Assembly (NCBI GenBank): GCA_038845265.1 | Contig: JAWBQR010000003.1 | Location: 1 to 64,000, forward strand | DNA length: 64,000 nt | Direction of reading: 5' to 3' | Origin: Nitrososphaerota archaeon | GTDB lineage: Archaea; Thermoproteota; Nitrososphaeria_A; Caldarchaeales; Calditenuaceae | Shown: piece after piece, positions 906 through 22,607 of the stretch | How the letters are laid out: each line of letters begins with the position of its first letter | Numbering within the stretch: the stretch's first letter is position 1 | Translations under genes and position numbers: made by a program | The notes under the pieces: model-generated | Told to the model about the DNA's origin: nothing | The model's input: the letters and a program-made list of their open reading frames with translations, nothing else | The model's database searches: none

Positions 906-2210
906 GTGCAGGAGGAAGAAAAAAGAATATTTGCCATTGACGTCCAAAAACAAAATGATGGGCTAGTAGGATATTTATTAGGATGGGTTCATGAAATTAG
1001 AGATCTTGGCTCATTAGTTTTTATAGTTCTGAGGGACAGAACAGGTACATGCCAAGTAAGTTTAAGACGCGACTCGTTAAATCAAAATGAACTTGCAGAG
1101 TTAGATAAAATTACTAAGGAATCAGTTGTTAGGGTAGATGGTATAGTAAGGATGGAGCCTAAATCGAGGTTAGGCGCAGAGCTTAAGGCTTCTAACCTCG
1201 TAGTTTTGAGTAGAGCTGCTGAGTCTCTGCCTTATGATGTTGTAGGAAAAGTAAAAGCAACCATGAATACGCGTCTTGAAAATAGAATACTCGATCTAAG
1301 AAGGCCGGAGCATAGAGCGATCTTCTTAATTGGCGATACTGTATTAAGTGCTTGTCGTGAATATTTACGGTCCTTGGGATTTGTAGAGGTAAGAACCCCC
1401 AGAATAATAGCAACTGCCACCGAGGGCGGAGCAAGTTTATTTGAGGTTAAATATTTCGACAAAACCGCGTATCTTGCCCAAAGCCCGCAGCTCTATAAGG
1501 AGGAGCTAGTAACCGTCTTCGAACGGGTATTTGAGATAGGCCCGTTCTTCAGAGCCGAGGAGTCTCATACTAGGCGGCACATTAGTGAATTCACATCCGT
1601 CGATATAGAGGCTGCTTTTCTTAATTATGAGGGAGTTATGAAGATTCTTGAAGAGCTAATCGTCTACGTAATAGAGAAGGTTATATCTGAAAGGAATAGG
1701 GAGCTTAAACTTTTGGGAGTAAGTTTGAAGGTTCCAAAAATACCATTTTTACGAATATCATATGACGAAGCACTAAGAGAACTAGAAGACCTAGGATTAA
1801 AGAAAAAATGGGGCGATGACTTTACGACTCAAGAATTAAGATTATTAGGGTCTAAACACCTAGGTTTTTACTTCATAACTCATTTTCCGACGGCTACTAA
1901 GCCTTTTTATATTAAGCCAAGCGATAGAGACGAATCAGTATCAGAATCATTTGATCTAATGTACCAATGGTTGGAGCTGTCATCTGGTGGTACTAGGATT
2001 TCTGACAGAAAATTGCTTGAATCTAGAATTAGAGAACAGGGTTTAAACCCCGATGCATTTAGATACCATTTAAAGGTCTATGACTATGGAATGCCTCTAC
2101 ATGCAGGATGGGGTCTAGGATTTGAAAGGCTATTGATGGTACTCACGAGAAAAACAAATATCCGCGAGACAATATTATTCCCACGTGATAAATTTAGATT
2201 AACTCCATAA
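906..2210 (+). CDS. aspS: Aspartate--tRNA ligase (archaeal type)
   Basis: GWVHEIRDLG OB-fold, YLAQSPQLYK, FRAEES (motif 2), GLGFERL (motif 3), FPRD..RLTP C-terminus. Confidence 0.95.
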   Translation: MQEEEKRIFAIDVQKQNDGLVGYLLGWVHEIRDLGSLVFIVLRDRTGTCQVSLRRDSLNQNELAELDKITKESVVRVDGIVRMEPKSRLGAELKASNLVVLSRAAESLPYDVVGKVKATMNTRLENRILDLRRPEHRAIFLIGDTVLSACREYLRSLGFVEVRTPRIIATATEGGASLFEVKYFDKTAYLAQSPQLYKEELVTVFERVFEIGPFFRAEESHTRRHISEFTSVDIEAAFLNYEGVMKILEELIVYVIEKVISERNRELKLLGVSLKVPKIPFLRISYDEALRELEDLGLKKKWGDDFTTQELRLLGSKHLGFYFITHFPTATKPFYIKPSDRDESVSESFDLMYQWLELSSGGTRISDRKLLESRIREQGLNPDAFRYHLKVYDYGMPLHAGWGLGFERLLMVLTRKTNIRETILFPRDKFRLTP

Positions 2211-2291
2211 ATTTAATCATCATTAGTAAAAATGTTATAAACTCATCACAATCATATCTTTATATTACGGCATTTTTTAAAAATAATTGAA

Positions 2292-2690
2292 TTGGTTCAA
2301 GAAGTGGTATCTGAAGTATTTCAAAATGCGTTTGTCCTTTATGCAATATTTTGTTTACTTGCTCCAATCATCTTTTACTTATTATCTGTTATACTTGCTC
2401 CTAACAGACCTAAAAAAGTAAAAAGGATGCCGTTTGAGTCAGGACAAACTCCTATCCCTTACAGAGTTAATCCATATCCAATTGAATATTTTCCCTATGT
2501 TATTGTCTATGTAGCATATGCACTTCTAGCATTAATTGCATTTTTGACATCCATCTCATTAATGGAGTCAGCTGAGACCCTATTCACTGGAATTCTAATA
2601 TTGTCAATTGTAACTCTCGTGACCATATACTTGAGCATATACATGAGGAGTTTGGTTCAAAAATTAGAAATTGGGGGACGAGAGAAATGA
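2292..2690 (+). CDS. nuoA: NADH-quinone oxidoreductase subunit A
   Basis: Three TM segments and the K.MPFESG loop; overlaps the start of nuoH. Confidence 0.8.
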   Translation: MVQEVVSEVFQNAFVLYAIFCLLAPIIFYLLSVILAPNRPKKVKRMPFESGQTPIPYRVNPYPIEYFPYVIVYVAYALLALIAFLTSISLMESAETLFTGILILSIVTLVTIYLSIYMRSLVQKLEIGGREK

Positions 2691-3745
2691 TGTTTGAACT
2701 TGTTAAAATTATAACGAACTTAGTTGAATCATTACCAGATTCTTTAAGATCCATTGTTAAGCTGACTTTAAGCGAGGCTTTTATTAAAGCCATGATTTTC
2801 CCGGGGGCTTTGTTCGGAGTAGTCCTCGGTCTATTCGCGGTTTGGTATGAAAGAAAGATCTTGGCACGCGTCATGCTTAGAGTTGGACCAATGCATGTAG
2901 GAAAAGTAAGTGGAATTCTTCAATTAGTTGCTGATGCTCTAAAAATTTTGTCTAAAGAGAGGATAATTCCGGACGTCAAGAATAGGTATTTATTTATAAC
3001 CATGCCTTCTATTGCTTTGTTCCTTTCATTACTATTGTTTGCATTTTTACCATTCGGTGCGGGATGGATTATTTATCCTTCTGAAATCGGGCTTTTGCTT
3101 TTCTTCGGTGTAATGGCTATAAGTCCTATTCCAATCTTACTCGCAGGCTATGCATCAGGTAGCAAATACCCGTTCATTGGGATGAGTAGATTTGCGTTAC
3201 AACTGTTCGGATATGAGATACCGATGTTCGTCTCACTTACAGGGATAATATTGCTTGCAAGATCATTTGATATAATAAAAATCGTAGAAGCTCAAAGTAC
3301 CTTACCGTTTATTTTCCCTCAATTTATCGGATTTATTGTATTTTTCATAACAATGGTTGCTGAGTCTGAGAGAATTCCATTTGATATTCCAACAGCCGAG
3401 AGTGAAATAGTATCAGGATGGCATACAGAGTATTCAGGAGTGAATTTCTTGATGATTCAGTTTACATCATATGAGAAGACTCTCGCTCTATGCGTCTTGG
3501 CATCACTTATCTATTTAGGCGGATGGTATGGTCCACCCGTTCCATTCGTTCCAGAATCAATAATTGCTCCATTTTGGGTAATAATAAAAGCATTAATCCT
3601 ATTCACAGTACTAGCCGTTATAAGAGGGGCTTATCCTCGTTTAACGATAAGTAGAGTATTAGAAATCGGATGGAAATATTTAATACCACTAGGATTCATA
3701 AATCTGTTGGTAACATCCATATTTGTGGCATTAGTTAGCCTTTAG
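2687..3745 (+). CDS. nuoH: NADH-quinone oxidoreductase subunit H
   Basis: ERKILARVMLRVGP, GILQLVADALK, AESERIPFDIPTAESE, PRL motifs; multi-pass membrane protein. Confidence 0.95.
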   Translation: MMFELVKIITNLVESLPDSLRSIVKLTLSEAFIKAMIFPGALFGVVLGLFAVWYERKILARVMLRVGPMHVGKVSGILQLVADALKILSKERIIPDVKNRYLFITMPSIALFLSLLLFAFLPFGAGWIIYPSEIGLLLFFGVMAISPIPILLAGYASGSKYPFIGMSRFALQLFGYEIPMFVSLTGIILLARSFDIIKIVEAQSTLPFIFPQFIGFIVFFITMVAESERIPFDIPTAESEIVSGWHTEYSGVNFLMIQFTSYEKTLALCVLASLIYLGGWYGPPVPFVPESIIAPFWVIIKALILFTVLAVIRGAYPRLTISRVLEIGWKYLIPLGFINLLVTSIFVALVSL

Positions 3746-16813: not shown

Positions 16814-16999
16814 TTTGTATCATACTCAGAATATAGCTATTAAGAAATCGCTACAATGTATTTTTTAGTTAAAGGAAGAATACATCGTGGCCATAAATGT
16901 ATTAGACATGATCCACATTCGGTTAATTTCTGGAAACTAATGGGTACAGATACTCTATAAATATCATCCCTAAGGTTATATTTAGTAGGGTGAGCGCCT

Positions 17000-18358
17000 T
17001 TGAGGTGGCTCCTAGCAAATTTTGCCATTGGATTATTAGTGACAATGATGCTGATATCTGCAGTTAATGGGGCTAATGGTTTCAATGTTTTGAAAGATGA
17101 TAATTTAATGATAAAACTAAGCTATCCTGTCGAGGCTGAAGTCGAATCATGTATTAAAATAAATGTCGAGGTAACTACATTGAGAGCTGTTGAGAATCTG
17201 ACCGTCATCCTTAAGTTAACTTATGTAGCCGATTCTACCTTGAACAAATTCTTCGATAAAAAATTAATAGATAATGTTGATACCGACGGGCCTGAATTAG
17301 TTTATTCAAAGACACTGAACGTATGTCTACCGACAGTCACGAAACCTGACCCTTACGTAAAAGCTGAAGTAGCAGCGACATATTCCACCATCGATGATTC
17401 AAATCTTTATGGTGCTTTTTACATGCTAACGGTAAGGTCTCCTACATATAGTCAATTACTAAGCCAGTATAACGAGGCTAAGAAGACAATAGATGCTTTG
17501 AAGAGCGAGATCAGTGGTCTTAAATTGCAGATAGAGTTGTTGAATAATGAATTAGACTCTGCGAGGGAAGCAAATGCTGTTCTAAGTGCAAAACTATTCA
17601 TGATTAATAAAAATTATGAAGAACTCAAGAAAAAATATGAAGAAGTGCTGAAAAAATATGAAGACCTGAATACTCAATACATAAATCTTGTGCAAGATTA
17701 TGGATCCTTGAAAGGAACATATGAAGTCTTGATGAAAAACTATGAGACACTCCAAAAAGACTATCAAGACATTAGGAGAGACTATGAATTGGTTTCAAGA
17801 GAGTTAAGTACACTTCAAGCATTTTATAACGATCTGAAGGTAAGACACTCCGATCTCCAGGAAAGTTATGGAGAAGCTGTGAAAATGATCGGTGAATTAA
17901 AGGGTATAGCCGATGAACGGGAAAGAAACCTAAATATCTTGCAAGCTATGCTTTCACAAGCAGCAAGTGAGGGAAACATCGTTAAATCTCTGGCCGCTGC
18001 ACAAGCAGTAGGACTAGCGGGTATAGGAGGATACTTAGTTTACAGAAAGAAAGCAGAGAAGAGAAGACCTGTAGAGAAGACAAAAGAGGAGAATAAGGTT
18101 AGTAGTTCTGAAGATAGTTCAGTCAAAGTAAGTGAGGCTAAACAGGACGCTACTAGTTCAGTCGATATTAAAATTACTAAGCCATTAAAGATACTTTCCG
18201 GTAGGAGAGTTACTATTCCAATGAAAATTGCTGACGAACTTGGTTTAAAGGTAGGAGATTTAGTAAGAGTTTACAAGAACGGCGAGTATGTCATTATAAA
18301 GCCAGAAAGAGACCATTTAGGACCAAATAATGGGCAGAATCTTTCAGGGCCATCGTAA
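17000..18358 (+). CDS. Exported Ig-like/coiled-coil membrane-anchored protein with C-terminal AbrB/SpoVT domain
   Basis: Signal peptide, beta-rich domain, long Tyr/Leu heptad repeat, TM helix followed by RKK, then GRRVTIP..IADELGLKVGD.V (AbrB). Confidence 0.8.
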   Translation: MRWLLANFAIGLLVTMMLISAVNGANGFNVLKDDNLMIKLSYPVEAEVESCIKINVEVTTLRAVENLTVILKLTYVADSTLNKFFDKKLIDNVDTDGPELVYSKTLNVCLPTVTKPDPYVKAEVAATYSTIDDSNLYGAFYMLTVRSPTYSQLLSQYNEAKKTIDALKSEISGLKLQIELLNNELDSAREANAVLSAKLFMINKNYEELKKKYEEVLKKYEDLNTQYINLVQDYGSLKGTYEVLMKNYETLQKDYQDIRRDYELVSRELSTLQAFYNDLKVRHSDLQESYGEAVKMIGELKGIADERERNLNILQAMLSQAASEGNIVKSLAAAQAVGLAGIGGYLVYRKKAEKRRPVEKTKEENKVSSSEDSSVKVSEAKQDATSSVDIKITKPLKILSGRRVTIPMKIADELGLKVGDLVRVYKNGEYVIIKPERDHLGPNNGQNLSGPS

Positions 18359-18396
18359 CTATTTTTATAACCAATTGTTGAGACGAAAATTATTTT

Positions 18397-21806: not shown

Positions 21807-22607
21807 TTGAGAAGAAAAAACTCATGCTATCTCTCGATAATTGCTTTTTTATTGATAATCTCATTTCTGTTTTTTAGCTCTCCGGGATTGTTATCAGCCA
21901 GCAAATCAGCAATAGTGGTCAAGTACGTTGAAGGAGCTGTTGGAGAATCTCTTAGCGAACTCATACCCGTAAGGATTAAAATTGTTTATTTAGTAGAGGG
22001 AAAGACGGTATCAAGAAATCCTCCCATTATGGCTTACATTGGAATTGGTGTCTATGCAAGAAGAACTGTCGTCAATAATGAAGTTGAGTTTTACCTCCCT
22101 CCAAGTAATTATTCATTGACGGTATTTTTGTCTGATAGAAGGCTCCCAACATGGAGAGATATAATTAAAATAAGCTCTCCTCTTCACATCACAGTAATTT
22201 ACGAAGAAACAAAGTATAAACCGCTAAAGATCGAAATAGTTGGAAATCACACCACCAATATCTCTAGGGCGACAGTAACTTTGGGACCTATTAATGGGCA
22301 ACGAGTTTACGCATCGCTTCCAGTACTATATTTCTGTGACCACTACGGTAATTTGTCAAAATATCCTGATCTACCTGAAAGTGGTGATTATCTATCAGCC
22401 TTACCCTACTACATGAGAATAGACAAAAAAGATCAAACCTACAACTCAAATAATGAATCTATTCAATTAATATCTTCTCCCTACTCTTTTCAATTTTTGG
22501 TTCCTGCAGATATTGCTTACGTAATTGAAGACCCTAGTTACGTGCCCATATTAATAATAAATGCAACCATTAGAGAGGTAGAGCATAAAAATGCTCAGCA
22601 TTATTGA
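21807..22607 (+). CDS. Hypothetical exported protein
   Basis: Basic N-terminus plus hydrophobic signal peptide; beta-rich mature region. Confidence 0.65.
   Translation: MRRKNSCYLSIIAFLLIISFLFFSSPGLLSASKSAIVVKYVEGAVGESLSELIPVRIKIVYLVEGKTVSRNPPIMAYIGIGVYARRTVVNNEVEFYLPPSNYSLTVFLSDRRLPTWRDIIKISSPLHITVIYEETKYKPLKIEIVGNHTTNISRATVTLGPINGQRVYASLPVLYFCDHYGNLSKYPDLPESGDYLSALPYYMRIDKKDQTYNSNNESIQLISSPYSFQFLVPADIAYVIEDPSYVPILIINATIREVEHKNAQHY

Follow-up and report, generated by a model that had tools for sequence, protein, structure and literature searches.

In the analyzed window, a stretch of 64,000 nucleotides (nt) from a Nitrososphaerota archaeon of the family Calditenuaceae (order Caldarchaeales; contig JAWBQR010000003.1 of assembly GCA_038845265.1), a single open reading frame (ORF) at 17000..18358 encodes a protein of 452 amino acids (aa) in which a stalk, predicted to lie outside the membrane, is fused to an AbrB-type domain, predicted to lie inside. 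The coding sequence runs from a TTG start to a TAA stop on the forward strand (+), as do all features of the gene given below. With moderate confidence, we read the protein as a membrane-tethered one-component DNA-binding regulator, i.e., a transmembrane transcription regulator, which is paired via a parallel coiled coil of approximately 26 nm. The original prediction had named, in this order, a signal peptide, a beta-rich domain with two Cys, a coiled coil with regular Tyr, a Gly/Ala-rich transmembrane segment followed by RKKAEKRR, and an AbrB domain in a cytoplasmic tail. This domain order holds nearly residue for residue, and the run of Tyr heptads that it listed, which extends from aa 206 on, is correct.

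The tail carries an AbrB/MazE/SpoVT swapped-hairpin domain at aa 394-438 (18179..18313). The Pfam model PF04014 scores 30.1 bits on the whole protein and 32.9 bits on the C-terminal piece alone, with a cut-off of 24.7, and it is matched by all 17 homologous tails tested. Searched against solved structures, a profile of the tail finds MazE (E = 3.4e-5), B. subtilis AbrB (1.4e-4), and archaeal AbrB-family regulators (1.5e-4). Five residues around aa 401-419, namely G401, R402, R403, P407, and G419, are invariant in 51 of 51 tails, and across these tails the AbrB domain has a median net charge of +4 (range 0 to +5). The hmmsearch ranges (profile 11-45 vs AbrB chain 15-49) set R403 opposite residue 15 of AbrB, which we take to be the Arg required for DNA binding. 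The invariant Arg-Arg pair and the charge lend indirect support to DNA binding by the tail. In the source genome (1.37 Mb in 34 contigs, 93% complete, the window being its contig 3), four more AbrB domains at or above the Pfam cut-off lie N-terminally in ORFs of approximately 330-350 aa (C1:39216-40226, C2:62609-63649, C4:13264-14319, and C8:68081-69070, where C denotes the contig), which by eye read as the archaeal AbrB-PhoU type. A 61-aa AbrB-like ORF (C9:34214-34396) gives a weak match of 17.9 bits, below the Pfam cut-off. Five of these six AbrB matches, including that of the gene studied here, are found within larger proteins.

By the positive-inside rule, the protein is predicted to span the membrane once, with the N-terminus outside and the tail in the cytoplasm. 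Its signal-peptide-like N-terminus (aa 1-24; 17000..17071) starts with M-R, followed by a hydrophobic stretch at aa 4-22 (Kyte-Doolittle hydropathy, KD19, of 2.26). Such N-termini align in 23 of 23 aligned homologues and may be cleaved. The Gly/Ala-rich transmembrane segment (aa 330-348; 17987..18043) has a KD19 of 1.31, compared to 1.23-2.15 in homologues, and it aligns with more hydrophobic segments both in homologues and in tail-less relatives. The 15 aa ahead of this segment carry a net charge of 0, and the 15 aa behind it, which include the basic stop-transfer cluster RKKAEKRR (aa 349-356; 18044..18067), one of +5. The same step, from 0 before to +3 to +5 after the segment, recurs in 21 of 23 homologues, i.e., those whose top hydrophobic window is the transmembrane segment. 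A low-complexity linker, which by the same rule would be cytoplasmic, follows at aa 357-393 (18068..18178) with a predicted local distance difference test score (pLDDT) below 50. It comprises 37 aa here and up to approximately 75 aa in homologues, in which it is variable and rich in Pro.

On the outer side, the beta-rich domain with two Cys of the original prediction corresponds to an ectodomain of aa 25-148 (17072..17443). Folded alone by AlphaFold2, it is modelled as a 9-strand sandwich at a pLDDT of 90.9, and its cysteines C51 and C109 are conserved without exception across 23 sequences. Searched with Foldseek, the ectodomain best matches lobes of arrestin and VPS26, with 11 matches at E<=1e-3 and TM-scores between 0.35 and 0.61 among the matches listed. 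VIA-align ranks transglutaminase C-terminal barrels, VPS26, arrestin, and RbmA highest (Z 9.8-10.3), and 38 chains reach Z>=8. No Pfam family matched aa 1-150, and a profile of the ectodomain retrieved not a single PDB sequence at E<=10. The modelled fold thus resembles a generic immunoglobulin (Ig)-like sandwich.

Between ectodomain and membrane lies the coiled-coil stalk (aa 150-325; 17447..17974). Its 25 heptads follow one another without interruption; 13 of them have Tyr at position a, and position d is mostly Leu. AlphaFold2 predicts a single helix of 174 residues (aa 150-323) at pLDDT >90, corresponding to a stalk length of approximately 26 nm, close to the earlier estimate of roughly 25 nm. 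Two copies of aa 140-452 were modelled together with a 17-row alignment, in three runs and with three controls. The interaction prediction score from aligned errors (ipSAE) reached 0.57 in three of three runs vs 0.00 in the best of three controls, with a contact agreement of at least 68% and a partner pLDDT of at least 74. Along aa 150-328, each residue is predicted to contact its counterpart in the other chain, i.e., as in a parallel, in-register coiled coil, and further contacts join aa 393-436 of both tails, such that the tail, too, is predicted to pair as a dimer. In calibration, 20 of 30 proteins with a solved pair structure and 1 of 23 with a solved single-chain structure reached the mark of this pairing test. 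Since coiled coils and AbrB dimers belong to the textbook folds and both motifs resemble solved structures, the pass may partly reflect memory of them, and we read it as likeness rather than as proof.

The original prediction had left open whether the fusion is conserved in related genomes or an assembly artefact. Queried with the whole protein, 65 of 76 genomes of the order, belonging to 12 of 15 genera, contain a homologue at E<=1e-10; one family has none in its four genomes. All 65 homologue loci were scored with one hidden Markov model (HMM) of the ectodomain and one of the tail. In 50 of them, stalk and AbrB tail are encoded in one ORF, in one the two parts are separated by a run of N, and 14 are tail-less. 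The fusion is present in 11 of the 12 genera that possess the gene, and in the alignment the homologues begin at the matching start position. An assembly artefact or a gene-call fusion is ruled out by the single ORF in 50 genomes together with a contig from another study that bridges stalk, transmembrane segment, linker, and AbrB domain (17564-18385). One homologue (L013, G023:C6, ORF 1977-3008) ends inside the transmembrane segment at 344 aa, which may reflect gene decay or an error in sequencing; its genus is mostly tail-less.

The bridging contig, 822 nt in length, stems from a run labelled metatranscriptome but flagged 'probably DNA'. Two RNA-Seq runs also contain contigs that map to the gene, at 99-100% identity (17015-17231, 17043-17196, 17511-17748, and 18252-18383), the last of which has Illumina adapter sequence as a loose end. 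The sequencing runs that contain the stretch are labelled hot-spring metagenomes. Two contigs from two studies stop at 18383 (RNA-Seq) and 18385 ('probably DNA' run), approximately 25 nt beyond the stop codon and just past a T-run read from the sequence as a possible terminator (18362..18366). As a weak hint, this position may mark the 3' end of the transcript. No contig of these libraries covered the adjacent phosphoesterase gene or the intergenic region upstream, which by the rule of this search does not count as a finding. Contigs of this kind give no expression levels, and DNA contamination of RNA libraries is possible.

Upstream of the gene, a TATA-box-like TATAAATA (16956..16963; approximately 37-44 nt 5' of the start codon) and a Shine-Dalgarno-like GGTGA (16988..16992; 7 nt ahead of the TTG) were read from the sequence, both with a putative role. 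Within its own genus, the gene sits between sucD and a convergent metallophosphoesterase gene. In a sister genus, inserted metabolic genes flank it on either side, and in other families the neighbours encode NAD synthase, ThiF-rhodanese, acylphosphatase, a PUA protein, or an amidase. No conserved operon partner was found in the families compared; the neighbours are housekeeping genes and vary from family to family. Approximately 3.4 kb downstream in the window, a 266-aa ORF with a signal-peptide-like N-terminus is located at 21807-22607 (+).

In the mechanism that we propose, a single-pass N-out/C-in envelope protein would pair through its parallel coiled coil of approximately 26 nm and thereby hold one Ig-like domain approximately 30 nm outside the membrane, a figure estimated from the stalk and one Ig-like domain of assumed size. 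Ectodomain and stalk may contact, or report on, something below the surface layer. Inside, past the basic cluster and the flexible linker, each chain would bear half of an AbrB-type swapped-hairpin barrel. Since such half-barrels need two chains and the parallel stalk pairs them, one DNA-binding unit would arise at the membrane, and the paired, positively charged tails would bind DNA there. What is sensed and which genes respond are inferred.

Several observations weigh against a regulator of this kind. The NCBIfam model TIGR01439 scores 26.8 bits, slightly below its cut-off of 28.3, and the top PDB match of the tail profile is the double-psi barrel of the Cdc48 N-domain (E = 3.3e-6), ahead of MazE and AbrB. 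Swapped-hairpin domains may also mediate protein contacts. The transmembrane segment is weakly hydrophobic and is not modelled as a helix by AlphaFold2 (pLDDT <50). A SlaB-like trimer would fit AbrB pairing poorly, and the model took two copies only. Without a conserved neighbour or operon, the locus gives no pointer to a regulon, and the contigs from RNA libraries fall short of proving transcription. Finally, the tail is dispensable in parts of the order: it is missing from 10 of 10 genomes of one genus (g7), including a complete single-contig genome of 1,680,938 bases, and from four of six genomes of another (g6).

The g7 protein ends within the poly-Pro stretch that opens the linker elsewhere. 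We computed a maximum-likelihood tree of ectodomain and stalk from 64 rows of the order and 8 outgroup rows, omitting genome G030 and eight duplicate named loci. Nine tail-less g7 rows (Shimodaira-Hasegawa-like approximate likelihood ratio test, SH-aLRT, 99) are nested in a 14-row clade (support 100) whose other five rows bear the tail, and the tail-less g6 rows adjoin two tail-bearing rows. Presence and absence of the tail therefore switch at least three times within the order on this tree, and because the outgroup is tail-less, the simplest history comprises one gain and two or more losses. In four tail-less genomes searched for a separate tail-like AbrB gene, the best matches reach 19.5-24.6 bits vs 79.7 bits in the source genome. 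They lie in frames of 336-420 aa, which by analogy with the source genome are of the AbrB-PhoU type. Since nothing above 24.6 bits occurs in these four genomes, tail loss rather than a split gene is indicated; no AbrB ORF was found within the retrieved flanks of the tail-less loci either, and domain fission is thus not supported. With the tail absent in 14 of 65 genomes and no separate copy in the four searched, the core function therefore needs no tail, which also counts against the regulator.

This leads to the alternative that survives best, although we consider it rather unlikely: a structural envelope anchor or spacer like SlaB or Saci_1846, which would brace the surface layer at approximately 30 nm, with the tail as a cytoplasmic dimer clasp or a protein dock. 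Besides the 14 tail-less genomes of the order, it is favored by the wider occurrence of the stalk. Searched against 1.84 billion representative proteins, the ectodomain profile yields 42 at E<=1e-3, and of the 41 representatives besides the window's own, 11 have an AbrB tail and 30 do not; the stalk module also occurs without AbrB in other archaea. These tail-less proteins constitute an unnamed archaeal stalk family that shares with our protein a homologous ectodomain (profile E 8e-18 to 5e-4), heptads with Tyr at a, and the position of the transmembrane segment, but lacks the AbrB domain, and its transmembrane segment is more hydrophobic. Full-length members mostly comprise 250-380 aa, with a signal-peptide-like start, Tyr/Leu heptads, a strongly hydrophobic C-terminal transmembrane segment (KD19 of 2.0-2.95), and a short end that is either basic or poly-Pro; several terminate in 6-9 prolines. 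In the ESM Atlas, the tail-less type was met in Thermoproteota and Bathyarchaeota, as leads only (best scores 0.87, 0.85, and 0.81, all below 0.9). Because these relatives and two sub-lineages of the order lack the tail, the stalk module appears to be older than the tail and to have a job of its own. As judged from profile matches, it is an ancient module to which the AbrB domain was added in Caldarchaeales.

The tail profile, in turn, retrieves 113 proteins at E<=1e-3, nearly all of 420-516 aa, and a search of limited sensitivity for short proteins sharing words with the tail found none. By these sequence comparisons, the tail-type AbrB domain is almost confined to this stalk family. Two metagenome variants differ in length: in a 121-aa variant (P0044), the first approximately 33 residues of the ectodomain run directly into the AbrB domain, which is an internal deletion or an assembly collapse, and a 533-aa variant (P0134) combines an N-terminal part of unrelated sequence with the stalk end, the transmembrane segment, and the AbrB domain. 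In databases, family members are labelled 'hypothetical', 'AbrB/MazE/SpoVT family DNA-binding domain-containing protein', 'Chromosome partition protein Smc', 'nuclease with TOPRIM domain', or 'Zn-ribbon protein', the last three of which are mislabels. Matches of the 452-aa protein to SMC, Rad50, and similar coiled-coil proteins stay far below their cut-offs. Likewise, the Pfam names found on relatives (PF24161 CCDC39, PF24319 DUF7491, and others) reflect coiled-coil noise: the source genome has no match to PF24161, and 13 of 14 control genomes show matches to DUF7491, none of which exceeds its cut-off.

A structural anchor would furthermore agree with the layout published for SlaB (available excerpt of PMC10903991), with the Ig-like domains and C-terminal transmembrane segment of Saci_1846 (available excerpt of PMC12207459, where a coiled coil is unmentioned), and with the gaps of 30-37 nm between S-layer and membrane reported from other Thermoproteota (excerpts of PMC10903991, PMC12207459, and a 2026 preprint), to which the stalk length is akin. 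However, the ectodomain has no PDB sequence match at E<=10, SlaB is absent among the Foldseek and VIA-align matches listed, there is one Ig-like domain instead of three, and no gene of a canopy protein adjoins the locus in any of the families compared. Moreover, the excerpt of the 2026 preprint describes candidates for self-anchored 'colossal' S-layer proteins in Caldarchaeales and mentions stalk-borne S-layers 30-70 nm over the membrane elsewhere in Thermoproteota. The source genome itself encodes large predicted secreted proteins of 1342 aa (C7:71299-75327), 1106 aa (C17:12136-15456), and at least 1705 aa (C20:75-5189, at a contig end). The first two end in a transmembrane segment and a tail, which is basic in the C17 protein, and two of the three have no Pfam match; all three are candidates for self-anchored colossal S-layer proteins. 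For a mere clasp, neither the Arg-Arg pair conserved in all 51 tails nor a net charge of +4 would be required.

A physical coupler between surface layer and nucleoid, in principle a prokaryotic counterpart of bridges of the LINC (linker of nucleoskeleton and cytoskeleton) type, appears unlikely to us. Here, the rigid dimeric stalk of 26 nm would touch the underside of the S-layer and the paired AbrB tails would hold DNA, such that envelope strain, growth, or division geometry could act directly on the position of the chromosome or on gene expression, without a soluble intermediate.

We also regard a chromosome-to-envelope tether without gene-specific regulation as improbable: many copies would bind DNA loosely and keep the nucleoid at the membrane, aiding segregation or division. 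AbrB-type domains bind DNA with a loose sequence preference, and the basic tail on its flexible linker of 37 to approximately 75 aa would suit such a role. Sulfolobus S-layer mutants with altered chromosome copy number, as cited in the excerpt of PMC10903991, also point in this direction. Against the tether, the tail is missing from all ten genomes of one genus, a replacement was found in neither of the two searched, and no segregation genes are linked nearby. Finally, a latent transcription factor freed by regulated intramembrane proteolysis is hardly probable; here, an envelope signal would trigger a cut in the weakly hydrophobic, Gly/Ala-rich transmembrane segment, and the AbrB dimer would then act on DNA. 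In its favor, helix-destabilising residues in transmembrane segments favor intramembrane proteases, and the segments of tail-bearing forms are Gly/Ala-rich and less hydrophobic (KD19 of approximately 1.2-2.4) than those of tail-less relatives outside the order (2.0-2.95). Against it, none of the loci compared has a linked protease gene, and a tail cut off its stalk would lose its pairing element.

To our knowledge, there are few or no pure cultures of Aigarchaeota/Caldarchaeales, and their cell biology is inferred from genomes. The fusion constitutes a lineage-wide one-gene design, in which an extracellular stalk of the length of the S-layer gap is joined to a domain of DNA-binding type. It is a testable candidate for the way in which an archaeon might report the state of its envelope to the chromosome without a two-component relay, or keep the two attached to one another. 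A genus that has naturally lost the tail is at hand for comparison. The analysis further defines an unannotated archaeal family of stalks composed of an Ig-like domain, a Tyr/Leu coiled coil, and a transmembrane segment.

A literature search found no description of a stalk-AbrB fusion; supplementary tables, which may list such proteins, lay outside this search. The labelling of the protein in databases is automatic only. Of the systems described, SlaB, to which the original prediction had likened the protein, resembles it in overall layout only: no sequence match was found, the fold matches listed are generic sandwiches, there is one Ig-like domain, and a slaA-like neighbour is lacking in the families compared. 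SlaB has two Ig-like domains in some species. As described in the excerpt of PMC10903991, it consists of a signal peptide, three Ig-like domains, a coiled coil, and a C-terminal transmembrane segment. Both proteins thus share a signal peptide (predicted here), an Ig-like beta-sandwich, a long coiled coil, and a C-terminal transmembrane anchor, with an expected reach of approximately 30 nm. In contrast to SlaB, our protein has a single Ig-like domain (aa 25-148) instead of three, a coiled coil of approximately 175 aa instead of 132 aa, and a tail of 104 aa, predicted to be cytoplasmic, that carries the AbrB domain. SlaB forms a trimer, whereas for our protein a dimer passes the model test, in which two copies were modelled. 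In addition, the slaA canopy gene lies adjacent to that of SlaB, whereas no slaA-like neighbour occurs here in the families compared.

With AbrB/MazE/SpoVT proteins (PF04014), including small archaeal regulators, our protein shares the domain as recognized by HMM, a predicted dimer, and a conserved Gly-Arg loop before an Ile-Pro motif. Known members are either small soluble proteins or fusions with soluble modules, whereas here the domain is found on a membrane stalk that can supply dimerisation.

Known transmembrane transcription regulators have their DNA-binding domain at the N-terminus. In the available excerpt of PMC10269533, the class is defined by a predicted DNA-binding domain together with at least one predicted transmembrane region. 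Our protein falls within this definition, as it combines PF04014 with the transmembrane segment at aa 330-348, weakly hydrophobic at a KD19 of 1.31, and a hydrophobic N-terminus. With ToxR, CadC, TcpP, and the archaeal ArnR/ArnR1, as covered by the same excerpt, it has in common a single-pass, one-component design with a predicted cytoplasmic DNA-binding domain and an extracytoplasmic part, a design able to act on DNA from the membrane. It differs from this class in its predicted type I topology, with a signal peptide and a C-terminal domain of DNA-binding type, in the AbrB swapped-hairpin barrel in place of a (winged) helix-turn-helix, and in the Ig-like head on a coiled coil of 26 nm in place of a compact sensor. 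Topology, type of DNA-binding domain, and ectodomain are therefore all unusual for a transmembrane transcription regulator.

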